From a bacterium (GTDB lineage: Bacteria; Patescibacteriota; Minisyncoccia; Phycocordibacterales; UBA2100): 64,000 bases of DNA. Shown piece after piece: positions 3,288-47,876 of the stretch (position 1 is the stretch's first letter; each line of letters begins with the position of its first letter). Made by a program: the position numbers and the translations under genes. The notes beneath the pieces are model-generated. The model worked only from the letters and a program-made list of their open reading frames with translations. It ran no database searches and was not told the DNA's origin. The stretch covers positions 13,080 to 77,079 of the forward strand of contig JAUSGQ010000044.1 of the NCBI GenBank assembly GCA_030674455.1, read 5' to 3'.

Positions 3288-3295
3288 ATTTTGAT

Positions 3296-3345
3296 GAAGC
3301 TCCAAAATCCAAGCTCCAAATCTCAAACAAAAAGAATGCAAAACT
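3296..3345 (+). repeat. ~50-bp repeat copy 1 (gaAGCTCCAAAATCcAAGCTCCAAATCtcaaacaaaaagaat..)
   Basis: Near-identical to 4645..4700 and inverted relative to 3711..3760. Contains a tandem 13-mer AAGCTCCAAAWYC. Confidence 0.7.
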
Positions 3346-3710: not shown

Positions 3711-3760
3711 TTTGAGTTTGTTTGGATCTTGGAGCTTGAGTTTTGGAGCTTCTACTTTAT
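3711..3760 (-). repeat. ~50-bp repeat copy 2 (inverted); forms the 5' leader of the four-helix-bundle gene
   Basis: Reverse complement reads gaagctccaaaactcaagctccaagatccaaacaaactcaaa followed by ATG. Confidence 0.7.
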
Positions 3761-4636: not shown

Positions 4637-4644
4637 ATTTTATT

Positions 4645-4700
4645 AAATCCCAAAATCCAAGCTCCAAATCTCAAACAAAAAGAATTCAAAACTCATAATT
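4645..4700 (+). repeat. ~50-bp repeat copy 3
   Basis: ccaaaatccaagctccaaatctcaaacaaaaagaattcaaaactcataat. Sits between the metG stop and the DMT start. Confidence 0.7.
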
Positions 4701-4717
4701 TCGAAGAAACGGAGTTT

Positions 4718-6223
4718 TTACTCTTTGCGCGGAAAGAGGTTCTCGGGCTTTTTATTCCTTTTTATTGCATCAAGAATCTTCTCACTAGTTGATGGCATGC
4801 AGGGAGCAAGAAGGTAAGCAATTGAAGCTACGTCCCTCACAAATACAGATAAAACAAGACGCCCAAATTGAGGATCTTGTTTAATGATTTTAAACGGTTC
4901 TTTTACGGATATAGCTTTGTCTAACTCTTGAATTCTATTCCATATACTATCCATTGCGCGACTTACCTCGAAGGTTTCGAGGGCTTGTTTATACTTTTTG
5001 ATATATTCCTCATCAACATAAACATTCATATCTGGTAGCTCAGCTGGACTATCGAGGTATTTCTCTGACAGGGCCATGACTCGAGACACAAAGTTGCCTA
5101 ATCCGTTAGCAAGATTGGCGTTGTAGGCTTCCTTAAATTTCTCCATCGTGAAATCGGAATCTTCGAACGGATGAATATGACGCGCGAGATAGTAGCGCAA
5201 AGCATCAGCGCCGTATTCATCCACTATCGCTATCGGGTCGATGACATTTCCGAGCGATTTGGACATTTTCTGGCCGCCGACATTAATGAAACCGTGAATG
5301 AGTATTTGTTTTGACGGGGGCAAACCGGCCGACATGAGCATCGCCTGCCACATCGCCGCCTGTTGCCGTATCTGGTCTTTCCCAGCCATTTGAATGCCGT
5401 TTGGCCGTTCAACTGTTCCCCAAAACTTGGTGAAGTTTGCCTCGTCGTCAGGCCACCCGAGTGTTGAAATGTAATTTATGAGCGCATCAAACCAGACGAA
5501 CATCACATGCCCTGGATCATCCGGAACTGGAACGCCCCATGGCATTTTCTTTTTGAGGCGGGAAATGCTGAAGTCTTCCAGTCCCGTTTCTACAAATTTC
5601 TTTATCTCGTTGAAACGAAAATCCGGCACTACCAAATCCGGCTGCTTCTTGTAAAGCTCAAGCAGCTCCTTTTGATACTTTGACCAGCGGAAAAAATAGT
5701 TCTCCTCGTTGATGAGTTCGATTTCAAGGTTCGGATGTATCGGGCATCGGCCGTCCACGAGTTCCGAATCCGTTTTTTCCAATTCGCACCCGACGCAATA
5801 TTTCAGCTGATAATTTTTCTTGTAGATGTCGCCTTTTTTGAGACATCGGCGCCAAAATTCCTGCGCCGCCGCTTTGTGGTCTGCATCGGTAGTGCGAATA
5901 AAGTGCAGGTCTGGATAGAGATTCAGCTTCTCTTTGAGATTCCGGAATTTGTCGGCGTACTCGTCCACATACTTTTGCGTGTTTTTCCCCTCTTCAAGCG
6001 CTTTGCGATGAATTTTGATTCCGTGTTCGTCCGTCCCAGTATTAAAGAAGACTTCGTCCCCGCAGAGCTTGTGATACCGCGCAGCGATATCCGCGTGAAC
6101 TATCTCAAGCGCGAAACCGATATGCGGTTCCGCGTTCACATATGGAAGGGTGGTCGTGAGATAAAAGTTTTTGCTTGCCCCGTTAGAGGCAGGTCGCGAC
6201 TGTGTAGATTTCTGTGAAGCCAT
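4718..6223 (-). CDS. metG: methionine--tRNA ligase
   Basis: HIGH-type motif (PHIGF), KMSKS, and zinc-knuckle cysteines. ATG at 6221-6223 (MASQKST..) preferred; the longer ORF to 6298 uses TTG. The N-terminus is encoded inside a duplicated inverted-repeat module. Confidence 0.9.
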   Translation of the reverse strand: MASQKSTQSRPASNGASKNFYLTTTLPYVNAEPHIGFALEIVHADIAARYHKLCGDEVFFNTGTDEHGIKIHRKALEEGKNTQKYVDEYADKFRNLKEKLNLYPDLHFIRTTDADHKAAAQEFWRRCLKKGDIYKKNYQLKYCVGCELEKTDSELVDGRCPIHPNLEIELINEENYFFRWSKYQKELLELYKKQPDLVVPDFRFNEIKKFVETGLEDFSISRLKKKMPWGVPVPDDPGHVMFVWFDALINYISTLGWPDDEANFTKFWGTVERPNGIQMAGKDQIRQQAAMWQAMLMSAGLPPSKQILIHGFINVGGQKMSKSLGNVIDPIAIVDEYGADALRYYLARHIHPFEDSDFTMEKFKEAYNANLANGLGNFVSRVMALSEKYLDSPAELPDMNVYVDEEYIKKYKQALETFEVSRAMDSIWNRIQELDKAISVKEPFKIIKQDPQFGRLVLSVFVRDVASIAYLLAPCMPSTSEKILDAIKRNKKPENLFPRKE

Positions 6224-6300: not shown

Positions 6301-7359
6301 TTAATCCTCATTACTGGCGAACTTACGCTTGCTCTCGACATCCTTGATAAATTCTTGGAGAGCACCGGCCATTGGTACAGAAAGAAGTATGCCTAAAAAG
6401 CCCGCCAATTTCGCCCCCACGATGAGCGCCAAAATAACGAGAAGCGGAGGAACACCGACCACGCGAGTTACGACCAACGGATAAATCAGATGATTCTCAA
6501 ACTGCTGGGCAATGATGTACAAAGCAACGGTCAGCAATCCGAGTGTTGCGCCCCCGTCGACAAATCCGATGATAATTGCGGGGACGGAAGCAAGCGTTGG
6601 GCCGAATACGGGAATAATCTCAAATACCGCAGCAACGACGGCAAGAAAGAGACTGTGCTTTACTCCCAAAATCGTAAGGCCGAGATAAATCAGGACTCCC
6701 ATAATAACCGCGAGGAGGAGCTGCCCTTGCATCCATAGTCCGATTTTGTGCTGGGAACGGTTCCAGAGATTTAGAACGTATGTCTCATATTTTCTTGGGG
6801 TGACAATGCGCAGGAAATCCGTTACCCCTGTCTCAATCACGGCAAAATAAAATGAGAGGACGATGATTAGAATGAATGAAAGAACTCCTCCGAATATTTT
6901 GCTGACCGCGCTGAATGCATTGCCGAACGTGTCGCCTAGATTCAACACGTTGCGCACGGTATCCATGATTTCGTTCGTGGCTGCGCTTGGCGTAGCGACG
7001 CCCAAAATCCGCGCATAGTCATCAAATGCTCCCACGCGGCTGAACGCCTCAAGATAACTCGGGAGCGAAGCGACGAACGTCGCCAAATCCTCCAATACTG
7101 ACGGCAAAAAGAAATAGAAAATCCCAAAAAATACGCAGAATAAAAGAATGTAAATGATTATGACGGAGAGAAGCCGAGGCACTTTCCGCTTTACCAATCC
7201 CCTGATACCCGGCTCCATCGCTGATGCGAACACTACGGCAGTCACAACGACAAGCACGAGGTCGCGCAGGTAAAACAAAAGCCAAGCTCCGACGAGCAAA
7301 ACAACGATTTTTATGACCGTACCAAGCGTTATGGAGATGTTAAGCGGTCGGGATTCCAT
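6301..7359 (-). CDS. AI-2E family transporter (PerM/UPF0118)
   Basis: 352 aa polytopic membrane protein with typical AI-2E topology and conserved C-terminal region. Confidence 0.8.
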   Translation of the reverse strand: MESRPLNISITLGTVIKIVVLLVGAWLLFYLRDLVLVVVTAVVFASAMEPGIRGLVKRKVPRLLSVIIIYILLFCVFFGIFYFFLPSVLEDLATFVASLPSYLEAFSRVGAFDDYARILGVATPSAATNEIMDTVRNVLNLGDTFGNAFSAVSKIFGGVLSFILIIVLSFYFAVIETGVTDFLRIVTPRKYETYVLNLWNRSQHKIGLWMQGQLLLAVIMGVLIYLGLTILGVKHSLFLAVVAAVFEIIPVFGPTLASVPAIIIGFVDGGATLGLLTVALYIIAQQFENHLIYPLVVTRVVGVPPLLVILALIVGAKLAGFLGILLSVPMAGALQEFIKDVESKRKFASNED

Positions 7360-11101: not shown

Positions 11102-11479
11102 ATGGAAATTCTACGATTGGTAACAAAAGCGTTTGCGATAGTCTTTTCTTTCATCTGGATATTGAGTCTTGTGATTTTCTTGTCCCCCACTGTATACCCA
11201 CCTATTGTAGGATTGATTGGCGGAGGAGGTCCTAGTAGTGGCATAGGTCTCGCTGGGGCTGGCCCTATTCCTACATTACTGGTGATTATTGTCAGTTTTG
11301 GCTGGCCATTTGTTTTGCTGAGCTGGGGATTCCATGGTGTTGTGGACGGATGGATAAAGAAAAGAAATGGGATTGAGCCCGTGTCACGAAATTACAATCG
11401 TCGCGTTCTTCTTGATGTCATTTTCCTAATCGCTTTTGTAATATGCATGTTTTTTGTTTTCCGATTTGGATTTGTTTGA
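11102..11479 (+). CDS. small Gly-rich membrane protein (hypothetical)
   Basis: 125 aa with 3-4 TM segments. Divergent from the large surface-protein gene. Confidence 0.35.
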   Translation: MEILRLVTKAFAIVFSFIWILSLVIFLSPTVYPPIVGLIGGGGPSSGIGLAGAGPIPTLLVIIVSFGWPFVLLSWGFHGVVDGWIKKRNGIEPVSRNYNRRVLLDVIFLIAFVICMFFVFRFGFV

Positions 11480-11514
11480 GATTCTTTGCTTGAAATCTGG
11501 TGCCTATTCCCTGC

Positions 11515-12094: not shown

Positions 12095-12130
12095 AGCAGG
12101 TTATAGGTTTTAGGTTATAGGTTTTAGGGA
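12095..12130 (-). promoter_or_regulatory. AGGTTATAGGTTTTAGG tandem motif between ileS stop and recO start (overlaps ileS last codons)
   Basis: aggttataggttttaggttataggttttaggg. Confidence 0.4.
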
Positions 12131-15586: not shown

Positions 15587-17311
15587 TCACATCTTCTCCG
15601 GTGCGGAAATGCCCAGGAGCCACAGACCGTTCTTTAGCGTTGCGCGGACTGCGTCGACTATCGCGACTTTGTGCGGTGCTTCTTTTGTTCCGTCCAAAAT
15701 ATGGACCTGTGCGTACCAACTATTGAACGCACCTGCGAGCCCAATGAGATAATTCACGAGAAGATGCGGTTCAAGTTCGTTCGCCGCATACAAGACAACT
15801 TCCGGAAAGCGTGTGACAAGGCGAGAGACATCCGCCTGCGCCAAGGCTCCGGCGGACAAGTCATTCGGCCATGCCTTTATATCCAACTTTGGTTTTATTC
15901 CTTCCGCGTGCGCTCTTTCAACTACCTGCTTTGCCCGCGCGTGCGCATATTGCAAGTACGGCCCCGAATCGCCTTCAAGAGAAAGTGCGCGCTCACGGTC
16001 AAATATTATGTCTCTGCCCGATGCCTGCCTCAAGATTTGATACTTAATGGCGGATATTGCTATCTGCTCCGCGAGCTGTGCGGGATTGTCCGAGCGGCTC
16101 ACTTTAGCTCGCGCGGTCGCACGTTCCTTTAGCTCCTCTATAAGCGACTCGCCAGTTATCACAACGCCTGTGCGTGATGACATCTTGCCGGAAGTGAGCC
16201 GCATCATGCCGTGCGATACGTGCTTCACTTTTGACGCAAGTTCCGGCAAAACTTCGCCGAGCGCCGCTTTAACCACCTGGAAATATTCGTTCTGCTCGTT
16301 GGCGGTTATCGTTACGGATTCGTCAAACGGCCACTTTTCCGCTTTCATTTCCAAAAGGCCGAGCTCTTTTGCTTCGTATGTCGGCAATCCGCGCGAAGTG
16401 ATGAACACACGGGTGTGCAGGCCGTGCCTCTCGCCCTTAAAGACGATAGCGCCATCGCTTTCCGGAAATACGTCTTTATTGGCTCGCACAATTTCCATTC
16501 CTTTCGGCGCTGTTTCACCTTCAAAGAAATAAAAATCAAATTTTGTGCCAAGAGTCTTGTAGATTTCCTCGAAATGTTTGAGGGATGCCTCGCGTCCGGC
16601 GTCGTATATCGCGTTTATTTCTTTGTCGGAGCGGTCATAGATTTTTGAATTGAGCGCATCAATTTCCGATTTCACATTCGTGTCGCTTTCATACGCTTTT
16701 GCTCCTTCCGCATATGCCTTTCCCAAAACTTTGGCGTCATGGGCATCCCATCCGTTCTTTTGGATACTCCAAATTGCTTTTGCGACATGCGGGCCGACAT
16801 CGCCCTGATAATTCGCACGCTTCACCTCCGCGCCTGAATATTGCACGAGGCGCGAAATTGATTCGCCGATTGCATTGCTCATCAAATGCCCGATGTGGAA
16901 TTCCTTGAAAGGATTCGGGTCTGTGTACTCAACCATCACGCGCGAACCTTTTTGCGATTTATTCTTTCCCCATGCTTTCTCATTTGAAATCACTTCTTGC
17001 AAGACTGCGTTGATAGCGTCGGGCGTGAGACGAAAATTGATAAAACCCGGCTTCACGACTTCAACGCTTTTGACGCCGTCCAGTGTTCCCAATCCCGCAA
17101 CTATCTTTTCTGCAAGTTTGATGGGCGGCATGCCGATTTGCTTTGCATACTGCAAAGCCGCGCCCGTAGCATAATCACCATGCGAAAGCTCCTTCGGCCG
17201 CTCAAGCGACACATTTTCGGCAACAACTTTGATTCCGACCGTATCCAAAGAGCGCACAAGCCCTTTTCTGATTATTTCGGCGACCGACATATCGGAATTG
17301 TAACAGAACAC
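15587..17311 (-). CDS. argS: arginine--tRNA ligase
   Basis: Class-I HIGH (FHIGHLMSNAIGESISR), a DALR anticodon-binding C-terminus and an N-terminal Arg-tRNA add-on domain. The start may be MSVAEII (17290). Confidence 0.9.
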   Translation of the reverse strand: MFCYNSDMSVAEIIRKGLVRSLDTVGIKVVAENVSLERPKELSHGDYATGAALQYAKQIGMPPIKLAEKIVAGLGTLDGVKSVEVVKPGFINFRLTPDAINAVLQEVISNEKAWGKNKSQKGSRVMVEYTDPNPFKEFHIGHLMSNAIGESISRLVQYSGAEVKRANYQGDVGPHVAKAIWSIQKNGWDAHDAKVLGKAYAEGAKAYESDTNVKSEIDALNSKIYDRSDKEINAIYDAGREASLKHFEEIYKTLGTKFDFYFFEGETAPKGMEIVRANKDVFPESDGAIVFKGERHGLHTRVFITSRGLPTYEAKELGLLEMKAEKWPFDESVTITANEQNEYFQVVKAALGEVLPELASKVKHVSHGMMRLTSGKMSSRTGVVITGESLIEELKERATARAKVSRSDNPAQLAEQIAISAIKYQILRQASGRDIIFDRERALSLEGDSGPYLQYAHARAKQVVERAHAEGIKPKLDIKAWPNDLSAGALAQADVSRLVTRFPEVVLYAANELEPHLLVNYLIGLAGAFNSWYAQVHILDGTKEAPHKVAIVDAVRATLKNGLWLLGISAPEKM

Positions 17312-17934
17312 TACTGCAATATCTTTCGCGCGATGTTCCAGACATCCGCATCTACCTCCTCTTTCGTACGATTTGAATTCACAACGTGCGCACTCGGCCC
17401 GATTACCTTTGCGAACTTCTTAAAACCGCTTTGCACCCGTGCTTGGTATGCCCGGTCTTTTTCGTCAAAACGGTCTTTTTGCGGCTTACGGCCTGCACGG
17501 CGCTTCTCTGCCGCGAGAACCGGAATATCAAGGACGATGTATGCGTCCGGCTCAAATTTCCCCAAAACCGCTTTGCGCGCTTCCCAAAAAAGTTTCTCGA
17601 GTTCCGGATGTTTTTCGCCAACAATTTGAAAGGCAAATGTCGAGGAGTCAAAGCGATCGCAAATAACATCTCGGCCTTCGCGAAGCGCCGGTACAATTCG
17701 CTCCCGCATATGCTCCGCGCGCGCTGTCCAAAAAAGGAAGAACTGGGTTGCAACATCCGTGGTAGGAATAATGTCTCCCAAAAGCAGTTTCCGGATTTTT
17801 TCCCCGAGCGGCGTTCCGCCCGGCTCATGCGTAAGCACGGTTCCTTTCTTCATCCTCGCATGCAGAAGTTTCGCGTGAGTCGACTTTCCGCACCCTCCGA
17901 TGCCGTCTATCACAATGAATCTTCCCTTTCGCAT
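17311..17934 (-). CDS. tmk: thymidylate kinase
   Basis: P-loop IVIDGIGGCGKST and a DRF/LID region. Start trimmed to ATG 17932-17934. Confidence 0.85.
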   Translation of the reverse strand: MRKGRFIVIDGIGGCGKSTHAKLLHARMKKGTVLTHEPGGTPLGEKIRKLLLGDIIPTTDVATQFFLFWTARAEHMRERIVPALREGRDVICDRFDSSTFAFQIVGEKHPELEKLFWEARKAVLGKFEPDAYIVLDIPVLAAEKRRAGRKPQKDRFDEKDRAYQARVQSGFKKFAKVIGPSAHVVNSNRTKEEVDADVWNIARKILQ

Positions 17935-17985
17935 TTGTGGATTATGCGCTAAAGGCGAGTCGCGGTCGAGGCATAAGATATGCGT

Positions 17986-18062
17986 GTCATTGCGAGCTAT
18001 GCGAAGCAATCTAGAGGACTCTGTTGAATCATTCTGGATTGCTTCGCTGCGCTCGCAATGAC
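17986..18062. repeat. palindromic repeat family member a (GTCATTGCGAGCtatGCGAAGCAATC...GATTGCTTCGCtgcGCTCGCAATGAC)
   Basis: 77-bp near-perfect hairpin downstream of the 18081..18731 gene. Family members also at 26488, 30089, 40403 and a degenerate one at 31296. Confidence 0.7.
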
Positions 18063-18080
18063 AGCACGTCCGATTCGTTA

Positions 18081-18731
18081 TTATGACGTGATCCGTTTGA
18101 TTGCAGAAAAGGCGCGATCGATATCTTTGTCAGCAAAAATAGTGCTGAATTCTGTCCCGATAGACATGACTTCCACGAGACTGATGCCATCCTCCGCAAT
18201 CGCTTTCAAAATCGGGTAGTACAGCCCCGGCACATTTAAGCTCGGCTCCGGCAGGCGCATGGTAATGGCCGAGAGGCCGCCCACTCGTTTCAAATACTTC
18301 TGATTGTCGAACGATGCCACCACTTCTTTTTCAATCTCTTGGCTCACGATAAGAAGCGACTCGTAGAGTCCGCGTGAAAAGTTGAGGAACACGCCTTTTT
18401 TATTTTTTGCGATGCGCGAGATCTTTCCTAATACGCCGGATAGATCTGCCGAGTTCGGAAAAACGAACTGCACCAAATTCGAGCGCACCGTGATGTCGCT
18501 CATCTGTTTTAAAAATCGCGTTCCGTACGGAACAACTTTGTAATCTTTCGCTATCCGGTGGAGTGCCATCGCGATTGACCCTTCGGAAACTTCCTCAAGC
18601 AAGATTTTCTCCACTTCAGGTTTTATCCTGCGGGCGATTTGCGCGTTGTTGGCCAACCCCTCGGCCATCGCCTCGGCTAGGAAGGGCGACCGGTGGATTA
18701 TGCCTTCAACGACTTGGCTTACAGTTCTCAT
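18081..18731 (-). CDS. hypothetical protein (possible ACT-like regulatory domain at C-terminus)
   Basis: 216 aa, divergent from asd-lysC. The C-terminus ISLVEVMSIGTEFSTIFADKDIDRAFSAIKRI resembles aspartokinase ACT ends. Its start codon coincides with the end of MITE copy 1. Confidence 0.5.
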   Translation of the reverse strand: MRTVSQVVEGIIHRSPFLAEAMAEGLANNAQIARRIKPEVEKILLEEVSEGSIAMALHRIAKDYKVVPYGTRFLKQMSDITVRSNLVQFVFPNSADLSGVLGKISRIAKNKKGVFLNFSRGLYESLLIVSQEIEKEVVASFDNQKYLKRVGGLSAITMRLPEPSLNVPGLYYPILKAIAEDGISLVEVMSIGTEFSTIFADKDIDRAFSAIKRITS

Positions 18732-18871
18732 ACCCGGTTAGTACAATTTCGAATAATTCCTGCCGTAGATGCGCCAGCGAATATTTGGAAAGACTGCTTA
18801 ATCAATTTTCTTTTCATATGATGTTGATTTGTTCATAACAAGGCGATTCGAAATTGTCCTACCGGGCATAT
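18729..18871 (+). mobile_element. MITE copy 1 (gene-less derivative of the GIY-YIG TIR element) with CATA target-site duplication
   Basis: TIRs CCCGGTTAGTACAATTTCGAAT (18733..18754) and ATTCGAAATTGTCCTACCGGG (18846..18866). Flanking direct repeats CATA at 18729-18732 and 18867-18870. The interior keeps an MPGRTISNR... remnant of the GIY-YIG ORF. Confidence 0.8.
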
Positions 18872-18983
18872 CGTTACAATTATAACAAACTGGTACAATT
18901 CTGTCAATATTCTCAAGAAATTTGGCTAAAAACGCGTTCGGGCGCACTATTGCCTCTTCTTAATAAATAGTAGCTTAATTACT

Positions 18984-20081
18984 ATGGCAAAAACAACACA
19001 AAAACTTTCCGTAGGAATTCTCGGCGCCACCGGCATGGTCGGCCAGAGATTCATAACATTGCTTGAAAACCACCCATGGTTTGAGGTACGTGCGGTTGCC
19101 GCATCAAGGAGCTCTGCGGGAAAGACCTACGCGGAAGCGGTTAAGGGCCGCTGGAAATATCCGACGCCGATTCCTTCGAGCGTGCAAGACTTAATCGTCT
19201 ACTCCGCCCCCGACGACGTGGAGAAGATAGTGAATCATGTGGACTTCGTATTCTCGGCAATTGAAATGGACAAGCATGCAATCCAAACCCTTGAAGAGTT
19301 GTACGCTTCGCGCGGAGTGCCGGTAGTTTCCAACAACTCCGCTCACCGATGGACAGCCGATGTGCCGATGATACTGCCCGAAGTAAATGCGTCCCATCTC
19401 GCCATGATTCCCATCCAGCAAAAAAATCGCGGTTGGAAGACGGGATTCATTGTCGTCAAACCGAACTGTTCGGTGCAATCATATATTCCCGCGCTAGAGG
19501 CGCTCAAACGTTTTGGTCCGCAGAAAGTGATTGTTTCAACTCTTCAGGCAATTTCGGGTGCAGGAAAAACCTTTGAAACAATGCCTGAAATCCTCGACAA
19601 CGTTATTCCCTACATCGGGGGCGAGGAAGAGAAATCGGAAAAAGAACCGATGAAAATCTGGGGTAGCATTGTGAAAGGAAAATTCAAACTCGCTACCGCG
19701 CCGAAAATCTCGGCCACCTGCATCCGAGTTCCCGTTGCCGACGGGCACATGGCATCTGTCGCGGTTTCATTCAAAACAAAACCGACCCGAGACGCAATCC
19801 TTAAAGCGTGGCGAACATACAAAAGCCCGCTCTCGGGGCTCGGCCTTCCATCAGCACCTGAAAAATTCCTGACGTACTTCGAGGAAGATAATCGCCCGCA
19901 GACAAAACTCGATCGCGACATCGGGCGCGGCATGGGTGTCTCCGTCGGCCGTCTGCGCGAAGACCCGATACTGGGATGGAAATTTATTTCGCTTTCTCAC
20001 AACACCATCCGCGGTGCAGCAGGCGGAGCCGTCCTCGGAGCAGAACTCTTAAAAGCCAAAGGATACCTGAAAGCCAGATAA
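18984..20081 (+). CDS. asd: aspartate-semialdehyde dehydrogenase
   Basis: [14 protein letters not shown].. N-terminus and an active-site Cys region. Confidence 0.9.
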
Positions 20082-20089
20082 ATTAATGT

Positions 20090-21445
20090 ATGGAAAAAAC
20101 TCCCAGCAACATCGTCATAAAATTCGGCGGCACTTCGGTCGCTACCAAAGAAGCGGTCCACGCAATCATCGCGATAGTTAAACGATACCGGAAATCGAAT
20201 CCCGTTGTCGTTGTTTCCGCCCTTCGCGGCGTAACCGAAGGATTGCTCGGGCTTTCCAAATGCCCTAAAGCCCAGCTTCCAGGCCGTATTTCGGCTCTGC
20301 GTGCCATGCATCAAAAATTGGCTTCCGACCTCTTCCCTACAGATAAAGACGTGGCCGAGGTGATGGCATATGTGGATGAGCAGCTCGCCGCAACGGAAAA
20401 AGTCGCGCGCAAAGGACGATTCAATCCCGCAGCTATGGACCAGCTCGTATCCGCCGGAGAAATCATGTCGTCATTTCTCATCGCAAAAGCGCTTGAGACG
20501 AACGACATCGCGTCAAGGCAGGTAGTCTCGACAGAAATAGTTGCTACCGACGACAATTTCATGCAGGCGGAATTCCAACCGAAAGAGACGGAGAAAAATG
20601 CGCGGAGAATTCTTGCCCCGCTTATTCGCCGCGGCATCGTTCCTGTCGTTACCGGATTCTTGGGTTCAACAAAAAAAGGACAGACGACCACGCTCGGACG
20701 CGGCGGCTCTGATTACTCCGCATCTATAATCGGGCGCTCGCTAGATGCAAAAGAAATACAAATTTGGACGGATGTCGACGGAATCTTTACGGCCGACCCG
20801 CGCGTCGTTAAAAACGCGCGCATTATTTCCGACATATCGTACCGCGAGGCGTCCGAAATGGCCGCGTTCGGAGCAAAAGTCTTGCACCCGAGAACCATCA
20901 GGCCGGCAGTCGAAAAAAACATTCCCGTGCGCGTACTCAACACTTTTAATCTTAAAGCTTCGGGAACCCTGGTGAGCCCGCGCTCAACCGGAACGGGACT
21001 CAAAGCGATAGCGTTCAAAAAAAACGTTGTGCTCGTCAACGTTTACTCGGATTCAATGCTTTTCTCGCGCGGATTTCTCGCCCGCATGTTCGAGGTATTC
21101 GCACGGCATCAGATCTCAATCGATTTGGTCTCGGTCTCCGAGGTAAGCGTTTCTGTAACTTTAGATAGCAACAACGGACACCTTGATGCCGCGGTAAAAG
21201 AACTGGAAGCGTTCTCCAAAGTGAGCGTACACAAAGATAGCTTCGGGATGATATCGCTCATAGGAGAGGGAATCGCCTCTGCGCAGGATATAATGACGAA
21301 TGTATCCGCACAGTTTAGCCGTCATCGAATTCCCCTGCGGATGATCTCTATGGGAGCGTCTGACATCAATATCAGTTTGGTAATACCCGCGGCAGATGTC
21401 GTGCGCGCGGCCAACATGGTTCACGATGAATTCTTGAGAAACTAA
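20090..21445 (+). CDS. lysC: aspartate kinase
   Basis: VIKFGGTSV.. N-terminus and C-terminal ACT domains. Confidence 0.9.
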   Translation: MEKTPSNIVIKFGGTSVATKEAVHAIIAIVKRYRKSNPVVVVSALRGVTEGLLGLSKCPKAQLPGRISALRAMHQKLASDLFPTDKDVAEVMAYVDEQLAATEKVARKGRFNPAAMDQLVSAGEIMSSFLIAKALETNDIASRQVVSTEIVATDDNFMQAEFQPKETEKNARRILAPLIRRGIVPVVTGFLGSTKKGQTTTLGRGGSDYSASIIGRSLDAKEIQIWTDVDGIFTADPRVVKNARIISDISYREASEMAAFGAKVLHPRTIRPAVEKNIPVRVLNTFNLKASGTLVSPRSTGTGLKAIAFKKNVVLVNVYSDSMLFSRGFLARMFEVFARHQISIDLVSVSEVSVSVTLDSNNGHLDAAVKELEAFSKVSVHKDSFGMISLIGEGIASAQDIMTNVSAQFSRHRIPLRMISMGASDINISLVIPAADVVRAANMVHDEFLRN

Positions 21446-21448
21446 TTG

Positions 21449-21588
21449 TATGCCCGGTAGGACAATTTCGAATCGCCTCATATGACTATTCGCCATCACA
21501 TGAAAAGAAGATTGTTGGAGCGGTCGTTACAGATGTCCGCAGGTGTAACTACGGCAGAAATTATTCGAAATTGTACTAACCGGGTATG
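21449..21588 (-). mobile_element. MITE copy 2 (inverted relative to copy 1) with TATG target-site duplication; exactly fills the lysC-dapB spacer
   Basis: TIRs CCCGGTAGGACAATTTCGAAT (21453..21473) and ATTCGAAATTGTACTAACCGGG (21563..21584). TATG at 21449-21452 and 21585-21588; the latter contains the dapB ATG. Confidence 0.8.
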
Positions 21589-22326
21589 AACATTGCACTG
21601 CTAGGACATGGAAATATGGGGCTGGAGATCGAACGGCTTGTTCGGGCTTCCGGCACGCACACAGTTTCCGTAATAGGAATGGAGGAGCCAAGCGGCGCGA
21701 TAGATACAGCTGGCCTCAAAAACGCCGAAGTTGTAATCGATTTTACGTCGCCGGAAATAGTGATGAACGATATTCGCACCGTGGCAAAAGAGGGGAAAAA
21801 TCTCGTCGTGGGAACTACGGGATGGCAGGAACACCTGCCGGAGGTGGAAAAAATCGTTCGCGAGAGCGGAATTGGCCTGATTTACGGCCAGAATTTCTCG
21901 ATAGGCGCGAATATCTTTTTCCGCGCGGTAGCTCATGCGACAAAACTATTCTCTGCATTTAAAGACTACGATGTGTACGGTTTGGAAATTCACCATGCCG
22001 GGAAAAAAGACAGTCCATCGGGGACTGCCCTGCGGACCGCGCAAGAAATTCTGCAGAACTCAAGCACCAAAAAAATCCTAACGACAGGTAAACTCGACAG
22101 AAAAGTACGTCCGGAAGAACTGCACTTCGCGTCCGTGCGAGGCGGCGTGAATCCCGGATTCCACGAAGTGGTTTTCGACAGCCCCGCCGATGCGGTTACT
22201 ATTTCTCATTCCGCGCACAACAGGGAGGGATTTGCGCAGGGCGCTATCCTTGCGGCAGAATTCATTCAAGGGAAAAAAGGCCTGTTTACATTTGATGACG
22301 TGATGAAAGCTCATGGCATAAAATAA
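21586..22326 (+). CDS. dapB: 4-hydroxy-tetrahydrodipicolinate reductase
   Basis: NAD-binding N-terminus (IALLGHGNMG) and HHAGKKDSPSGTA motif. Confidence 0.9.
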   Translation: MNIALLGHGNMGLEIERLVRASGTHTVSVIGMEEPSGAIDTAGLKNAEVVIDFTSPEIVMNDIRTVAKEGKNLVVGTTGWQEHLPEVEKIVRESGIGLIYGQNFSIGANIFFRAVAHATKLFSAFKDYDVYGLEIHHAGKKDSPSGTALRTAQEILQNSSTKKILTTGKLDRKVRPEELHFASVRGGVNPGFHEVVFDSPADAVTISHSAHNREGFAQGAILAAEFIQGKKGLFTFDDVMKAHGIK

Positions 22327-26487: not shown

Positions 26488-26565
26488 GTCATTGCGAGCA
26501 ACGCGAAGCAATCCAGTGGATTGTACAAATTACTCTAGTTTGCTTCGCTAAGCTCGCAAAGACGG
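26488..26565. repeat. palindromic repeat family member b (GTCATTGCGAGCaacGCGAAGCAATCC...TTTGCTTCGCtaaGCTCGCAAAGAC)
   Basis: Directly downstream of rplK. Confidence 0.65.
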
Positions 26566-27740: not shown

Positions 27741-27775
27741 GGGTAGGTTATAGGTGTTAGGTTACAGGTTATAGG
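27741..27775 (-). promoter_or_regulatory. tandem AGGTTAYAGGT motif abutting the nusG start
   Basis: gggtaggttataggtgttaggttacaggttatagg. Confidence 0.4.
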
Positions 27776-27778
27776 AAA

Positions 27779-28060
27779 TTACGGAGTGGTTGTGTCGGAG
27801 GTTGTTGCCGCTGCAGGAGTTGTAGTCGAGAGATTGATATTATCAATCGTAACTGCCGGAACGTTTGCTACAGGCAGGGTTTCTAGCACGCTGCGCAATC
27901 CGGTAGTAAAAATGTAGTCAAAGAGGCCGAGGTATAGAGCAATGAAAACGGAAAGCAAAATGACGATTATCGTATACACGATGGTCTGAAGCTGCGTAGG
28001 CCAAGCCACGTGCCGTAATTCCCCGCGCGTATCTTTGAGGTACTGAAAGAAGGATGACAT
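27779..28060 (-). CDS. secE: preprotein translocase subunit SecE (with Thr-rich C-terminal tail)
   Basis: 93 aa. TRGELRHVAWPTQLQT followed by a TM helix. Position upstream of nusG-rplK. Confidence 0.7.
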   Translation of the reverse strand: MSSFFQYLKDTRGELRHVAWPTQLQTIVYTIIVILLSVFIALYLGLFDYIFTTGLRSVLETLPVANVPAVTIDNINLSTTTPAAATTSDTTTP

Positions 28061-28105
28061 AGGTTACAGGTGCTAGGTTTTAGGGAATAGGTTATAGGTT
28101 ATAGT
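28061..28105 (-). promoter_or_regulatory. tandem AGGTTAYAGG motif abutting the secE start
   Basis: aggttacaggtgctaggttttagggaataggttataggttatag. Confidence 0.4.
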
Positions 28106-28130
28106 AAATTCGTCAAAACTCTCCCTAATC

Positions 28131-29987: not shown

Positions 29988-30088
29988 AAAATACTATCAC
30001 AGTATTTTTTGATGTACCAATTAACGCCCCTCACTTGGCGGTTGAACCGCCAAGTGACTTATCTTCCACAGATACGCCTTAAACTCCT

Positions 30089-38453: not shown

Positions 38454-39018
38454 AATTTATGCGTTTCCCCGGACTAAATAAAAATATCCGCTGTAATGCA
38501 ATCATAAAGCGGCGATAGTGAAGTTTTCATGAGTACACTCGGTATTAGACGCGTGGCACGCATGTTGCTTACAGTTGTCAGTCAGTTGTCCAGTTGTCAA
38601 TTCACATTTTCTCCATGGTCAGTAATAGATACTGTACGCATGCGTCTTCCGTAAGTAAGCCAGATAAAAAAGAAGAACGCATATGCCTATGAAACACATT
38701 AGCGAATTTCTTGTCATTCGAAGACGCGAACTTGAAAGAGTCCGCCAGATTTCTTTGTTCGATGCGACTCCCGAAAAAGGAAGCGTTGAGTGGGGTACCT
38801 TTAATTCTCTGCGCGATGACACAATCGACGGTTATCCTGTACTCATCTCACAGAAGCCCATCGTAGTTGCAGAGCCGCACCACATATTGCGCATTGTGTA
38901 TCCTCGACCAAAGCAGGCTTAAAAAAACAATCCGCTAGGAGGCGACTTGGGGGTTGAACCGCCAAGTGAGAACCTACAAGTCAAAGAGCGGTAAGAACTT
39001 TCCTTCTCGAGCGTCTTC

Positions 39019-43801: not shown

Positions 43802-46180
43802 TTATGCTTTGTTATCCCTTTTGGCAAGATAGGACGCAAGGCCGCCCGGGCGCGAATATGCAAATACATTTTCGATTCCTGCATCTCTGGCAAGTACAAT
43901 CACTGCTTCAATTAGGCGCTGAGAGACTGGCGCATCGTCGTGAATGCGCACATCACCTTTAGGCTCCGGGTATTGCAGAAGCATGTTGTATCCGAGAGAA
44001 CTTTTGTCTTCCGGCCGGCCATTCGGGATGAGACCGACGAAATGTGCGCCTTCCGAAAGCCCCGCCTTCGGCTTTTGGTGGAATTTAAAAACGGCATCCT
44101 GCGGAACGTACGCGAGCACTTCTTTTTCCGAGGGCCGTCTACAGGTGCCGATGCCTATCCCATCGGCCATTTTAGAAACTTCCGGCACCGGCCTCGGCCT
44201 ATAATCAGCACTGCAGATTGAAATGCAGACGATATTTTTTCCCTGCGGAGCTAATACTTTCGGCGTAAGGAGTTCATCGTAGGTGATGCCGAGCAATTCT
44301 TTGCCCGAGAGGTCGGTGCGCACGAGCGCGATCTGCCCGGCGATGTGTTCGGCACTTGGCCGATGGGTTGGCATCGGCACCTGTCGACGGTCCGCGGCAA
44401 GAATAATGACCTGCTTCGGGATATTTTTTTCATACGCGGTCTTTTCCGCCATGAGCGGCTCCCAGCAGTGGTTGTAAAGTTCGTACGATTCCTTAACCCA
44501 TCGCGAATACCGATGAAGCACCGTGAAGCGATACTCCGGAGTTTTAAACAATCCATAGATCGATTCAAAGCTCTCGTATGGAAGCTGCTGTTTAAGGATT
44601 GTACGCTGAACTTTTCCCGTCGAGGTCGTCGGGAGTTCCGCGACAGTCATCGAAGTGATGTACTTCGGCGTTTCGTATGCGCTCAAGTACGGCGTACCGC
44701 ATAAAAGCGCCAATTTGAGCCGTCTTTTGGCGGCATCAGTATCAACTCCCTCTTTCCACGAAATCACGGCGCCGCATTCCTCGCCGTAGCGCTCATCGGC
44801 TACCGACACAACGTGAACCTGCGCGATGTCGGAAGATATTTTCTTGAGAGAATTTTCCACGGCAATCGGCGAAATGTTGATGCCGCCTTTGATGATAATT
44901 TCGCGCTTGCGCCCTTTGAGATAAAAATACGGCCTCCCCTCCTCAATGCGGAAATAGCCGATGTCGCCCGTCAAAAAATATCCGCGTGCCTCTGTAGGCA
45001 GGTCGCAAAACGCAGGCTCGCCGCCGACATACCCTTCCATCAAGGCTTCGCCTTTGACGATGATTTCTCCTTCTTCTCCCTCCCCCTGGAATTTCCCATT
45101 CTCATCTGCAATGCGCACATCCGCCCACGACATCGGAGCGCCGATCGAGTTTTCTTCCACGAGACGTTCATACAACTCTTCCGATAGTCCCATCGGCACG
45201 CCCGTCACGCGAAGCGCAGTTTCCGTCTGCCCGTATCCCTGATAGAGCGAGATGCCGAATTTCTTTCTGAATTCTTGCACCGTGCTGGCGATGACGGGAG
45301 CCGAACCTATCTGTATGCGCGAGAGAACGACATTTTTTCTCACCGCTGCGTATTCTTCCTCGCGGTTCAACTGGTCAAAGAGAATTGACTGCACGATAGA
45401 TGTAATCGTCGCGGAGGTCGCGGCTATCTGCTGCCAGAAGTGCGAGTTAGAGTATGCTGGTGGAATCGCGATGGAGCCGCCGGCAAGCAGCATCGCGAGG
45501 CAAAAGGTCGTTGAGTTAATGTGGTGCAGCGGGAGATTGACCAGGAACCTGTCTGTCTCGGTAATTCGAAGCCACTCGCCAATAGCCTCCGCATTGACGA
45601 TGAGATTCTTGAGCGAGAGCTTCGCACCCTTCGGATGCGCCGTCGTGCCGGAAGTAAATAAGACGAGAGCTTGATGCGAAAGCCCCGTTTCCCAAACAAC
45701 CTCTGTATCCTGCTTTTTAGGAAAGTCTGAAAATTCTTTGATATTCACTCCGCTTAAATGCGATTTATCTGCGTCTTTGAGCAAGCCTTTCTGTGCTACT
45801 AGTACTTTCGCACCGTTCAGTTTGATTTTGTATGCGTGCTGTTCGCCCGTGTCGCGTTTCGTGTCGAGCGGAATAGTAATGATTCCGGTACTCCACGCCG
45901 CCCACGAGATTATGAGAAGTTCGGCAGAATTCTTGAACGCGAGCGCGGCCCTGTCCCCTTTGCGCAGGCCCAATTCAGACAGATAGGAGGCAGCTGATTC
46001 CACTTCTTTAGCCAGCTCCCCAAAATTTATTTCACGCAGGATTTTCCCGGTCTCATCGCAACTCACAAGAGCTGCGCGAGAAGGATGCATTTGAGCAAGA
46101 TGTGCGATATGTTCGTGCAGACTTTTGATGCGTTTTTCGTGCATGTGGCTTACTTTACTCTTGAGGCCTCTTGCGCGCAA
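43802..46180 (-). CDS. acyl-AMP ligase (AMP-binding superfamily) fused to a ~280-aa C-terminal domain of unknown function
   Basis: 792 aa. TSGTTAHPKG, GYGQTE and ..TSTGKVQR.. adenylation motifs occupy the first ~510 aa. The remainder has no recognisable motif. Confidence 0.7.
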   Translation of the reverse strand: MRARGLKSKVSHMHEKRIKSLHEHIAHLAQMHPSRAALVSCDETGKILREINFGELAKEVESAASYLSELGLRKGDRAALAFKNSAELLIISWAAWSTGIITIPLDTKRDTGEQHAYKIKLNGAKVLVAQKGLLKDADKSHLSGVNIKEFSDFPKKQDTEVVWETGLSHQALVLFTSGTTAHPKGAKLSLKNLIVNAEAIGEWLRITETDRFLVNLPLHHINSTTFCLAMLLAGGSIAIPPAYSNSHFWQQIAATSATITSIVQSILFDQLNREEEYAAVRKNVVLSRIQIGSAPVIASTVQEFRKKFGISLYQGYGQTETALRVTGVPMGLSEELYERLVEENSIGAPMSWADVRIADENGKFQGEGEEGEIIVKGEALMEGYVGGEPAFCDLPTEARGYFLTGDIGYFRIEEGRPYFYLKGRKREIIIKGGINISPIAVENSLKKISSDIAQVHVVSVADERYGEECGAVISWKEGVDTDAAKRRLKLALLCGTPYLSAYETPKYITSMTVAELPTTSTGKVQRTILKQQLPYESFESIYGLFKTPEYRFTVLHRYSRWVKESYELYNHCWEPLMAEKTAYEKNIPKQVIILAADRRQVPMPTHRPSAEHIAGQIALVRTDLSGKELLGITYDELLTPKVLAPQGKNIVCISICSADYRPRPVPEVSKMADGIGIGTCRRPSEKEVLAYVPQDAVFKFHQKPKAGLSEGAHFVGLIPNGRPEDKSSLGYNMLLQYPEPKGDVRIHDDAPVSQRLIEAVIVLARDAGIENVFAYSRPGGLASYLAKRDNKA

Positions 46181-46865
46181 TTATCAGAAGACCGGTTCCG
46201 AATGGCAACGAAATGAATCTTATGAGCATAGATTCAATTTTTACAACAGCGAAAAAAATCGCGTTGAGTAAGCGCGGCATCCTCAAAGAGCTGTCGCCTG
46301 ACCTTCCCAAGAGGCGCATGAGCGCGGCAGGAATGAAAAGCAGCATGTTCCAGTAACTCGCGTATTCAACTTCAAATCCGGCGTCATTCAATACAGCGCG
46401 CATTGAGGCTTTCGTATACCTTCGGAAATGATGGTGGTTAACATCATGAATGCCCCAGAGAAATTGGAACGCGGGCACTGTTATTGCGAGGTGGCCGCCG
46501 CTCTTTAGCGCCCCGTGGGCTTTTACCAGAAACTCCCTGTCATGCTCGATGTGTTCAACAACATCAAATAGCCCTATCAAATCGTACGCTCGTCCCAGTG
46601 CCTCGCTTTCAGTTGATAATGCACGCAGATAGCCGCGCTTGCTGGCGGCTTCTCGCGCTTCCGCATCCGGCTCGTAGGCATATATATTCTTTCCGATGCG
46701 CGAAAGGTCTTTATACATTCCTCCGTAACCCGCGCCGAAATCAAGAACATCTTCTGCCCGCTTCGCGCCGCACTTCGCAAGCCCGGCGTGAATTGCCGCG
46801 GCACGGCCTCGGTACCACCAGGATTTCTCCATGTCACTCAAAAGTTTAAAAGCGTTTCTCTCCAT
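46155..46865 (-). CDS. class I SAM-dependent methyltransferase
   Basis: VLDFGAGYGG motif I. The start ATG lies inside the left terminus of the GIY-YIG element. Confidence 0.8.
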   Translation of the reverse strand: MERNAFKLLSDMEKSWWYRGRAAAIHAGLAKCGAKRAEDVLDFGAGYGGMYKDLSRIGKNIYAYEPDAEAREAASKRGYLRALSTESEALGRAYDLIGLFDVVEHIEHDREFLVKAHGALKSGGHLAITVPAFQFLWGIHDVNHHHFRRYTKASMRAVLNDAGFEVEYASYWNMLLFIPAALMRLLGRSGDSSLRMPRLLNAIFFAVVKIESMLIRFISLPFGTGLLIIARKRPQE

Positions 46866-47172
46866 ACCCGGTTAGTACAATTTCGAATTATTCCGTCCGT
46901 AATAATCTTTCAATCGCTTTGCAAGAAAGCGACGGCCTCCCGTGGTTTTGAAATATTGTTCTCGACGTTTTGCGTCAACCAGAGAACGACATGCTTCGTA
47001 GTACGCAAGTATAAAAGGCCGTCGTGGTGCTGTGGCAAAACTTTTACCCTGCTGGTGTTGATCCATGCGCTTTCGCAGATCACTCGTATATCCAATATAT
47101 TGCTTATAGTCTTTCATACTCTGCAAGACATAGACATAATAAAAGCGATTCGAAATTGTCCTACCGGGCATA
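46863..47172 (-). mobile_element. TIR-bounded GIY-YIG element (autonomous-looking copy): 22-bp terminal inverted repeats, 4-bp CATA target-site duplication, single 99-aa GIY-YIG gene
   Basis: TIR-L CCCGGTTAGTACAATTTCGAAT (46867..46888), TIR-R ATTCGAAATTGTCCTACCGGG (47148..47168). CATA at 46863-46866 and 47169-47172. The first 8 codons of the GIY-YIG ORF (MPGRTISN) are encoded by the TIR itself. Confidence 0.8.
46872..47171 (-). CDS. GIY-YIG nuclease family protein (YhbQ/UPF0213-like)
   Basis: YYVYVLQS..YIGYTSDLRKRMDQHQQGKS..RRPFILAYYEAC..AKRREQYFK matches the GIY-YIG motifs. Confidence 0.8.
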   Translation of the reverse strand: MPGRTISNRFYYVYVLQSMKDYKQYIGYTSDLRKRMDQHQQGKSFATAPRRPFILAYYEACRSLVDAKRREQYFKTTGGRRFLAKRLKDYYGRNNSKLY

Positions 47173-47174
47173 TA

Positions 47175-47876
47175 TTATTTTGAAATTACGTTTCTAATTC
47201 TAAACATGGCCCGTAAAGCACCGACACTGTCACGCAAAAGAACAAGTTTGCTTTTCCTGTCTTCGAACCGGTGTTCATTCCAATGAACCGGCACTTCTTT
47301 GATGCTAAGCCCTGCACGTTCAGCGCGCGCAAGAAATTCCATATCAAGGAACCATCCCTTTTCCGTACAGCCCGCAAGGATTTTTCTCCCTCGCGCATTC
47401 ATTATCTTCAGCCCGCACTGGGTATCTTCCACACTCCTCACCCCTACTATCATCTTTCTCAATATGTTGAATGCCTTGGATGACAGCGTTCGAAATGCGC
47501 CGCGCTTAACCATCGTGGTTTCGATAAGGCGCGAACCGATTGCAATATCAAAACCGCTCTTCTCTACCAACGGGAGAAGGTTCAGGATGTCTTCGGGGTC
47601 TGCGGAAAGGTCGGCATCAATAAATCCGAAAAAATCAGCGCCAGAATGGCGCGCGGCAGCGGCGACAGCCGCTCCCTTTCCCCGTATAGGGATTGATAAG
47701 ACGGATACGCCTGGAATGCCCTTTGCGGCGCTTGCCGTACCGTCCGTTGAATCATTGTCGGCAACAATGACAGCAACATCCTCGCCTGTTTTTTGAAGTA
47801 CGCGCAGTACCGCGCCCGCAGATTCCGCAATAATGCGCTCTTCGTTGTAAGCGGGAATGCAGATTTCAATGGCCAT
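47175..47876 (-). CDS. family 2 glycosyltransferase (polyprenyl-phosphate sugar synthase-like)
   Basis: CIPAYNEERIIAESA..VADNDSTDGT..IDADL; DPM1-like GT2. Confidence 0.85.
   Translation of the reverse strand: MAIEICIPAYNEERIIAESAGAVLRVLQKTGEDVAVIVADNDSTDGTASAAKGIPGVSVLSIPIRGKGAAVAAAARHSGADFFGFIDADLSADPEDILNLLPLVEKSGFDIAIGSRLIETTMVKRGAFRTLSSKAFNILRKMIVGVRSVEDTQCGLKIMNARGRKILAGCTEKGWFLDMEFLARAERAGLSIKEVPVHWNEHRFEDRKSKLVLLRDSVGALRAMFRIRNVISK

Follow-up and report, generated by a model that had tools for sequence, protein, structure and literature searches.

A putative minimal transposable element encoding a GIY-YIG nuclease lies on the start codons of host genes in Patescibacteria

The DNA analysed here, called the window throughout, is a 64,000-nt stretch of a bacterial genome (GTDB lineage Patescibacteriota; Minisyncoccia; Phycocordibacterales; UBA2100; assembly GCA_030674455.1, contig JAUSGQ010000044.1, positions 13,080 to 77,079). 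It holds three copies of a small element, each placed directly in front of a gene (Table 1). The copies represent a single element type with imperfect inverted repeats, the left one reading CCCGGTAGGACAATTTCGAAT and the right one ATTCGAAATTGTACTAACCGGG. Copy 3 is full-length and carries the gene of a GIY-YIG nuclease; copies 1 and 2 are gene-less miniature transposable elements with inverted repeats (MITEs). In all three, the right end (...TTGTACTAACCGGG) runs into a TATG whose ATG is the start codon of the adjoining host gene, and a second TATG flanks the left end. The window has exactly three occurrences of the 15-mer TTGTACTAACCGGGT, namely 18732-18746 (-), 21571-21585 (+) and 46866-46880 (-), each of them followed by an ATG, and an nhmmer search of the window with a model of the short form revealed no fourth copy, even a degenerate one. 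The host protein of copy 1 gave no match in a Pfam search. An initial annotation had described the same end of the element as fused to a host ATG in all three copies and the other end as opening a nuclease open reading frame (ORF). The coordinates and ORFs proved correct, and ATG followed by CCCGGTAGG indeed begins an ORF with a GIY-YIG match in Pfam.

Table 1. Position of the element copies, their flanks and host genes in the window, and diverged relatives at other loci (L numbers).
Feature	Position	Strand	Remarks
Copy 1, MITE, 134 bp	18733..18866	-	nhmmer match; TATG flanks 18867-18870 and 18729-18732
Host gene of copy 1	18081-18731	-	216 aa; starts at ATG 18729-18731
Promoter-like sequence of sigma-70 consensus type	18879..18907	-	TTGACA, 17 nt, TATAAT with TG; 12/12 matches
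Unoccupied target TATG at lysC start (ORF 20090-21445)	20089..20092	+	orthologous site in metagenome contig L109 holds a 131-bp MITE
Copy 2, MITE, 132 bp	21453..21584	+	nhmmer E=9e-34
Surroundings of copy 2	TATG 21449-21452 and 21585-21588	+	lysC stop 21445; dapB ATG 21586
Host gene of copy 2, dapB	21586-22326	+	246 aa; Pfam DapB_N and DapB_C
Copy 3, full-length element, 302 bp	46867..47168	-	left end 47168, right end 46867
GIY-YIG nuclease ORF, 99 aa	46872-47171	-	sole ORF of copy 3
Upstream target copy TATG of copy 3	47169..47172	-	3 nt past the stop of glycosyltransferase gene 47175-47876
Downstream target copy TATG of copy 3	46863..46866	-	ATG 46863-46865 starts the methyltransferase gene
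Host gene of copy 3, class I methyltransferase	46155-46865	-	236 aa; Pfam Methyltransf_23
Relative in L168, Sungbacteria	between rplF and rplR		repeat CCCGGTAGTACAACTTCGAA
Relative in L169, metagenome contig	between yidC and jag		repeat CCCGGTAGTACAACTTCGAA
Relative in L170, metagenome contig	between two unannotated ORFs		repeat ...ACAACTTGGAA
Relative in L171, Liptonbacteria-type	after T2SSF gene		repeat CCCAGTACTACAACTTTGA
Relative in L174, metagenome contig	after fpg		repeat CCCAGTAATACAACATCC

The nuclease ORF spans the whole of copy 3 but starts beyond it, at an ATG (47169-47171) that belongs to the upstream copy of the target; the element itself contains no start codon. The left repeat makes up codons 2-8 (PGRTISN), and the right repeat supplies the final NSKLY and the TAA (46872-46874), after which CCGGGT leads to the host ATG 6 nt away. 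The inverted repeats, 20-22 nt long and conserved in more than 130 copies, are one inserted base and one or two substitutions apart, and because of the one-base difference (CCCGGT-AGG versus CCCGGTTAG) the TAA falls in frame at the right end. The domain match (PF01541, residues 11-79, E=3e-14) scores 53.5 bits, where the curated cut-off is 22.6. Across 35 homologues, Y25, G27, R35, H39 and E71 are invariant, with Y12 and Y14 at least 90% conserved, and by our reading these columns would be the GIY, YIG, Arg and catalytic Glu motifs. The first search returned 330 homologues, of which those no less than 70% identical retain MPGRTISN and NNSKLY. The family profile matches 16,867 clusters at E<=0.001, most of which may be ordinary UPF0213 genes.

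The nuclease is under purifying selection, with a median ratio of non-synonymous to synonymous substitution rates (Ka/Ks) of 0.09 over 8 full copies and Ks near saturation. The codons that encode the repeats are nearly invariant at the DNA level, silent positions included; together with the low Ka/Ks, this indicates that the protein and, independently of it, the ends as DNA are under selection. Searching the PDB with a profile of the family retrieved the UPF0213 proteins BH0048 (E=5e-11) and EF2693 (entries 1zg2 and 1ywl), then SLX1. The AlphaFold2 model (predicted local distance difference test score of 80) has the GIY-YIG alpha/beta fold, with the repeat-encoded residues 1-7 and 96-99 predicted to be disordered, and the best Foldseek matches are UPF0213 BH0048 and Slx1, including Slx1-Slx4, at probability 1.00, with I-TevI and UvrC weak. 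Domain match, motif residues and fold thus place the protein in the GIY-YIG superfamily. UPF0213 and Slx1 proteins are its closest relatives in sequence and fold, the former being of the same single-domain size; YhbQ and YazA belong to the Slx1 family (PMC7017083). In the strict sense, Slx1 is defined by a C-terminal PHD/RING-type zinc finger and an Slx4 partner (PMC7017083), and the 99-residue single-domain protein has neither. The element protein also differs from both groups in its repeat-encoded termini, and no mobile role has been described for these proteins.

To survey insertion sites, the repeat core CCCGGTN{0,1}AGKACAATTTCGAA, with flanks left free, was scanned against one genome per species (GTDB) and the JGI metagenomes, giving at least 167 loci of 8 kb. 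All site counts and shares are among the matches listed, and the exact-match scan favours intact copies; gene starts were inferred from ORFs rather than from curated annotation. Pairing of the ends yielded at least 136 unique insertion sites, or at least 129 after clustering of downstream flanks, with element lengths of 130-137 bp in about 120 cases and of 300-302 bp, with the same ends, in 9. The named genome records are nearly all metagenome-assembled genomes of the candidate phyla radiation (CPR/Patescibacteria), chiefly Candidatus Kaiserbacteria, which the window resembles; three matches in other phyla lack the flanks and were set aside as chance. At 109 of the 127 testable sites, the start codon at +1 after ...CCGGGN opens an ORF of at least 80 codons. 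At six others the +1 ATG opens a short ORF of 46-68 codons (two resemble L29 and L33 by eye), and at one the ATG follows CCGGG immediately. About 115 of the 127 independent sites (~91%) therefore lie exactly on a host ATG start. The gene start is 6-51 nt downstream, still faced by the right end, at six or seven sites, and about five are unrelated to any gene start, being intergenic or at gene 3' ends. No insertion among the listed sites is mid-gene, and no copy is reversed or has its left end on a gene start.

For comparison, occurrences of YATG (Y being C or T) in reconstructed empty loci were counted with a crude home-made gene caller that ignores RNA genes and constrained promoters. The counts were 555 at gene starts, 1159 at intergenic non-start positions and 12,441 within genes, so that gene starts make up 3.9% of all YATG and at most 32% of those outside called genes. 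The observed start-codon share of 86-91% contrasts with 20-32% expected among non-genic YATG (binomial P = 3e-32 for 109/127 against 0.35), and the excess stays large when the intergenic YATG class is halved. The survey counts and this comparison rule out chance as the cause of the position: placement on start codons is near-exclusive and the orientation is fixed.

Searching all loci with rebuilt empty forms uncovered about nine orthologous sites that lack the element (in L112, L106, L145 and L109, at four places in L008, and at the lysC start in the window). In each of them YATG occurs once and forms the start codon of the ortholog; in L109, the counterpart of the copy 1 site is empty, and the orthologous gene there has one TATG at its start. 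The pair of YATG around the element is thus a true target-site duplication, and the element integrates at YATG with duplication of these bases. The duplication is mostly of 4 bp, with ~10% of sites showing 5 bp (YATGA/YATGA), where the extra A is the fourth base of the host in 10/10 cases. Rare non-ATG duplications occur at off-target sites (GTAA/GTAA, TGTA/TGTA, TATA/TATA, TACG/TACG and CATA/CATA), and both classes lend further support to a real duplication. A target logo built from 97 sites holds information at YATG only (at -1, T 0.65, C 0.33, A and G 0.01 each), with slight A/T enrichment at -11 to -5.

At 34-38 sites, about a third of the total, the duplication begins with C in its left copy and with T in its right copy. 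The opposite combination was never seen among the listed sites, and a right-hand C is present only when the left base is also C (10/10). An empty site in L008 reads CATG, whereas its ortholog in L155 has CATG on the left and TATG on the right, so the right-hand T does not come from the target. At the approximately 45 sites with a palindromic CATG target, the right end points toward the gene every time. Since these sites and the off-target insertions share one orientation, the tetranucleotide alone cannot explain the start-codon pattern. The initial annotation had taken the flanking ATG to be at once part of a duplication and the host start codon, which the empty sites prove, and had called the insertion positions strikingly non-random. 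Copies lying off start codons in random orientation were the pattern it named as contrary to this claim, and the ~127 sites show the opposite. Its proposal of TATG at translation starts as the target is supported as regards the start codons; the strict TATG gives way to YATG.

The MITEs far outnumber the full copies. Their ends are conserved and their lengths uniform at 131-136 bp, and their interiors, with a likeness of 0.45 against 0.375 for shuffled sequence, do not align to the nuclease gene. The two MITEs of the window are 81% alike; more generally, MITEs resemble one another within a genome and their interiors vary between genomes. Interiors not derived from the gene, uniform lengths and likeness within a genome point to an old lineage that moves as MITEs, and the unalignable interiors, the uniform length and the likeness of the window pair rule out in-situ deletion remnants of full copies. 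As MITEs need no expression and are not remnants, the start-codon bias cannot be explained by only expressed copies spreading. The ORF opened by the left ATG runs for 42-44 codons to a TAA 6 nt before the host ATG in 28/88 MITEs and stops after 11 codons in ~35/88. As RNA, a MITE is predicted to fold, with energies of -47 and -42 kcal/mol and z-scores of -3.5 and -4.2, into a stem of ~27 bp in which both AUGs take part; apparent compensatory changes are to be expected of inverted repeats in either role, as DNA sites or as RNA. Rfam covariance models gave no match at E<=1 (window 18000-22000). A larger insertion sequence with the same ends was considered and ruled out, pairs of ends 1.6-2.0 kb apart being neighbouring small elements. 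A sister MITE subfamily with the ends CCCGGTAGTACAATTTGGCA...TGCCAAATTGTACTAACCGGG, likewise followed by TATG, was seen in L025 and L040 (e.g. L040 minus strand 7052-7182), and shares genomes with the main subfamily.

A co-directional ORF ends within 40 nt upstream at 49/86 sites, and within 8 nt at 34, which places most insertions at tight operon-internal junctions; a divergent gene is faced at 16 sites. The host genes include essential ones (rplR, yidC-jag, dnaG, lysC and dapB). Non-coding DNA makes up 8.5-14% of the loci, and spacers are tiny, often 1-8 nt. No Shine-Dalgarno signal is visible in the target logo, and Shine-Dalgarno-like 4-mers are not enriched upstream of ORF starts (11% versus 11% in random 15-mers, L001-L167 and the window). 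In the Kaiserbacteria-type loci and the window, many starts lie 7-9 nt past a -10-like box or 1-8 nt past the previous stop. This suggests that initiation in these organisms is leaderless or coupled.

The ATG next to the host gene duplicates the host's own ATG, and the parts that the element supplies are the T before it, in many cases, and the in-frame TAA 6 nt upstream. With no G-rich signal at the right end or the targets and no enrichment in the genomes, donation of a Shine-Dalgarno sequence by the element is ruled out. An outward promoter in the right end was rejected as well: a scan of window positions 18600-21700, which hold copies 1 and 2, gave one weak 9/12 site (18718-18747, +); its second hexamer falls within copy 1's right repeat, but on the plus strand it points into the element, not towards the host gene. 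By eye, the right end shows just TACTAA at -12 to -7. The suggestion in the initial annotation that the element donates an initiation context to the downstream gene thus survives for the preceding T and the in-frame TAA, but not for a Shine-Dalgarno sequence or a recognisable promoter. The promoter-like sequence upstream of copy 1 has its -10 box ending 9 nt ahead of the left-flank ATG; if it functions as such, the MITE would form the leader of the downstream gene's transcript.

Diverged relatives retain this architecture. Both repeats co-vary across subfamilies (...ACAATTTCGAA, ...ACAACTTCGAA, ...ACAACTTGGAA, CCCAGTACTACAACTTTGA), and the layout of ATG, repeat, interior, repeat and (N)ATG of the next gene is conserved in every diverged locus examined. 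Full copies occupy unrelated loci: between glycosyltransferase and methyltransferase genes, at the dnaG start, between rplF and rplR, between yidC and jag, and between fpg and its downstream gene. In L174 (1820-1870), just one TATG separates a right end from the further left end that comes next, a tandem arrangement to be expected if every insertion restores its target. The public call of the nuclease in L171 (1478-1503) begins at an internal ATG, with a repeat-encoded MPSTTTLT upstream in frame, and several database homologues of 81-94 aa probably have starts or ends mis-called in the same way. Further afield, a GIY-YIG subfamily of more than 4,400 members ending in ...SYLTG, which is the same right repeat in another frame, is spread over Bacteroidota, Cloacimonadota, Thermodesulfobacteriota and CPR. 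At the one such locus read (L176, 1181-1465), a perfect inverted repeat of 15 bp, TTTACCCTGTTAAAT, akin to that of the CPR elements, stands on either side of the gene, whose start codon is an ATG of its own located 8 nt into the left repeat; this element follows a 23S_rRNA_IVP-family gene and lies between two ~40-nt stretches that are ~75% alike.

We interpret these elements, with a probability of about 0.7, as a minimal inverted-repeat transposable element family of CPR/Patescibacteria that lives by borrowing start codons. The autonomous form would be ~302 bp long and consist of a single ORF for a 99-aa Slx1/UPF0213-type GIY-YIG nuclease, whose first 8 and last 6 codons coincide with the inverted repeats, and the ~133-bp MITEs share its ends. 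The element integrates at YATG and duplicates it. Having no start codon, promoter or ribosome-binding site of its own, the nuclease gene could be expressed only when the left end lies upstream at a real start codon. The upstream ATG copy and the host initiation signals would then start the nuclease, and the downstream ATG copy re-creates the start of the host gene, leaving the host ORF intact and the element as an extra cistron of the operon. In the Kaiserbacteria-type subfamily, the host gene may be translated by termination-reinitiation, its ATG lying 6 nt past the nuclease TAA. The nuclease is probably the mobility enzyme, since it is the sole ORF, its ends are encoded by the repeats and co-vary with them, purifying selection acts on it, and within the 8-kb loci no copy has another ORF or a transposase beside it. 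It could cut YATG with a 4-nt 5' stagger in the target as well as at either end of the element; once excised, the element would carry overhangs from the donor flanks, which would anneal to the likewise-cut target. A mismatched 5' base would then sit at the top-strand nick of both junctions and be replaced from the bottom strand, keeping the target base on the left and the donor base on the right. The C/T asymmetry of the flanks would follow from such donor overhangs.

Several points weigh against this interpretation. To our knowledge no GIY-YIG enzyme acts as a transposase, and enzymes of this superfamily hydrolyse DNA without strand transfer; a transposase acting in trans from beyond the 8-kb loci is also conceivable. 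The overhang model leaves the perfect duplications at off-target sites unexplained and would need fill-in there, and a 4-bp target does not account for the constant orientation at the CATG sites. The null for intergenic YATG is crude. In a folded transcript both AUGs would be buried in the stem, which may harm the host gene. The left-ATG ORF stops within 20 nt of the host ATG in 39% of MITEs, which rules out translational coupling as a universal feature; with the nuclease stop lying 27-45 nt upstream of the host ATG in distant subfamilies, coupling cannot be the general reason why insertions are tolerated. At the sites with a 5-bp duplication, the left ORF has 3 codons and the insertion is still tolerated.

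As to the cause of the start-codon bias, we lean, at slightly less than even odds, towards YATG specificity combined with strong loss of other insertions in compact genomes that lack Shine-Dalgarno signals. An additional active preference for gene starts is a tentative second choice, and a smaller share is left for both acting together or for something else. Under active preference, the machinery would recognise gene starts and their direction beyond the tetranucleotide, perhaps through a DNA structure or melted DNA where transcription or translation starts, and the pattern would be mechanistic, not a product of selection. The start-codon share speaks for it, exceeding by far not only the expected 20-32% but also the 55% reached if half of the intergenic DNA is constrained, as does the single orientation of all CATG insertions. 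Six off-target insertions with non-ATG duplications still have a start 6-17 nt downstream and turn their right end towards the gene, and the same bias is found in MITEs, for which expression is unneeded. The closest structural matches are nucleases of branched DNA, recognition of a DNA structure or melted DNA would suit a structure-specific Slx1-type enzyme, and the mild A/T enrichment at -11 to -5 is a further point in favour of active preference. Yet the logo has almost no information beyond YATG, no DNA-level mark of start codons is known, and more than half of the sites are operon-internal, where a promoter would not fit, which excludes a transcription-start signal as the general rule. The boldest combination, in which a 99-aa Slx1-like nuclease is the sole protein of a new class of DNA transposon whose machinery senses gene starts and their direction, and which, stripped of promoter, ribosome-binding site and start codon, docks actively on those of its host, seems to us unlikely. 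Pure survivorship would have the element hit any YATG, with orientation set by the tetranucleotide, and selection remove all but the start-codon insertions. The small non-coding fraction, the spacers of often 1-8 nt, the lack of mid-gene insertions among the listed sites and the exact restoration of the host ORF by the duplication all suit such a process, and the exclusion of A and G at -1 implies a real sequence specificity. However, intergenic non-start YATG outnumber YATG starts ~2:1 by the crude count but receive at most 4% of copies, a palindromic CATG cannot set an orientation, and insertion sequences elsewhere in bacteria are mostly intergenic; survivorship on its own is somewhat doubtful.

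Other readings deny the nuclease its role in transposition. The GIY-YIG gene may be a passenger or a domesticated host gene, the repeats being moved by another enzyme or forming a host-maintained family akin to REP/RAYT that acts in regulation at gene starts. UPF0213/YhbQ-type proteins are ordinary single-copy genes in many bacteria, MITEs outnumber full copies by ~120 to 9, and the strong MITE hairpin containing both AUGs could modulate translation. We consider this improbable, given that the nuclease ORF opens and closes with codons that are the repeats themselves and that the two vary together from one subfamily to another, that full copies stand at unrelated loci in different genomes, and that no further ORF or transposase lies beside any copy; the unconserved MITE interiors also speak against a sequence-specific regulatory RNA, and Rfam gave no match (window 18000-22000). 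A free-standing homing endonuclease gene, copied into empty alleles by repair like the seg and mob genes of T4, would likewise be a GIY-YIG gene between host genes apparently reliant on host translation signals, and T4 mobE overlaps the nrdA stop (PMC2988022). Here, though, more than 100 unrelated host sites have YATG alone in common, terminal inverted repeats, duplications and non-autonomous derivatives are present, and the 99 residues form one domain, with no DNA-binding domain for a long site. Homing was rejected on the diversity of sites and retains hardly any probability.

Compared with known systems, the element shows the features of class II transposons and MITEs: terminal inverted repeats, a target-site duplication, many loci, and occupied/empty polymorphism. 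It encodes no transposase of a known class (DDE, DEDD, HUH, Ser, Tyr or Cas1), its sole ORF being GIY-YIG by Pfam. Like IS200/IS605, it is very small and sits in fixed orientation beside a specific tetra- or pentanucleotide; those elements, however, use an HUH Y1 transposase and subterminal hairpins, make no duplication and measure ~0.7 kb or more, whereas here there is no HUH domain, the repeats are terminal, and a true 4-5-bp duplication is formed even off-target. REP/REPIN-RAYT systems also have a small nuclease gene between inverted copies of a short repeat and many dispersed gene-less copies. Unlike the present case, with its full copy at differing loci between genomes and its copies on start codons, RAYTs, which are HUH enzymes, keep to a stable locus, and REPs are located downstream of genes. 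Bacterial MITEs such as the Correia elements of Neisseria are similar in size (100-150 bp), in their ~25-bp inverted repeats and short duplication, and in their many copies near genes and hairpin-forming transcripts (PMC10969869). They derive from DDE-type insertion sequences without a tie to start codons, in contrast to the 302-bp GIY-YIG parent and ~91% placement on ATG seen here, and neither 'start codon' nor 'GIY' occurs in the text of a 2024 review of prokaryotic MITEs (PMC10969869). Rickettsia palindromic elements, of ~150 bp, also let host ORFs survive insertion (PMC10969869), but they do so in frame within coding sequence and add a peptide, whereas here the host protein is unchanged. 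The seg and mob genes of T4-like phages are small GIY-YIG genes inserted among host genes; they often lack an initiation region, and their expression may depend on translational coupling (PMC2988022). They differ in having one cognate site each, spread by break repair, and proteins of 200-300 aa with DNA-binding modules, and in having no inverted repeats, duplication or MITEs.

No description of a GIY-YIG inverted-repeat element or of a start-codon-specific bacterial element was found in the literature searched, which lay mostly outside subscription journals, and the phrase 'GIY-YIG transposase' is absent from it. We rate the element as a categorically new kind of mobile element with putative enzymology. 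If the nuclease does move it, this would be a new enzyme class among transposases, and at ~300 bp the element would be the smallest autonomous mobile element known; IS200 measures ~700 bp. Its layout is a distinct form of harmlessness for a selfish gene, a seamless extra cistron that hands the start codon back, as opposed to the splicing of introns and inteins or parking in spacers. In the annotation of CPR genomes, the true starts of genes are displaced or hidden by these copies, and the nuclease itself is given a wrong start by gene callers, as in L171. The family offers a handle on how start codons are defined in bacteria without Shine-Dalgarno sequences and on whether translation starts can be found by a process at the DNA level, and the related GIY-YIG genes that repeats flank in other phyla point to an unrecognised family that is much larger.

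The window contains further repeats. Tandem 7-nt units TAGGTTA/TAGGTTT cluster at 35-73, 535-553, 12097-12129, 27744-27776 and 28060-28106; TAGGTTATAGGT has 17 matches with up to 2 mismatches against 1.8 expected, a number reached in 0/100 shuffles, and from their sequence the clusters look like iterated binding sites. A second palindromic element, GTCATTGCGAGC...GCTCGCAATGAC, is present at 17985-18063 and 26488-26520, with 31-nt arms (87% complementary) and a 17-nt loop. In the copy at 17985-18063, the left arm overlaps the 5' end of a TTG-start ORF (17311-18009, -) and the right arm reaches to within 17 nt of the stop of the host gene of copy 1; this palindrome has no relation to the GIY-YIG element and could be a repeat of the REP type. 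The repeat family GAAGCTCCAAAATCCAAGCTCCAAATCTCAAACAAA occurs in direct and inverted copies at 3290-3378, 3717-3752, 4638-4726 and 11471-11503. Near-identical palindromes, CTCACTTGGCGGTTGAACCGCCAAGTGAG, lie at 30030-30057 and 38945-38970 and may be shared terminators or another small repeat.

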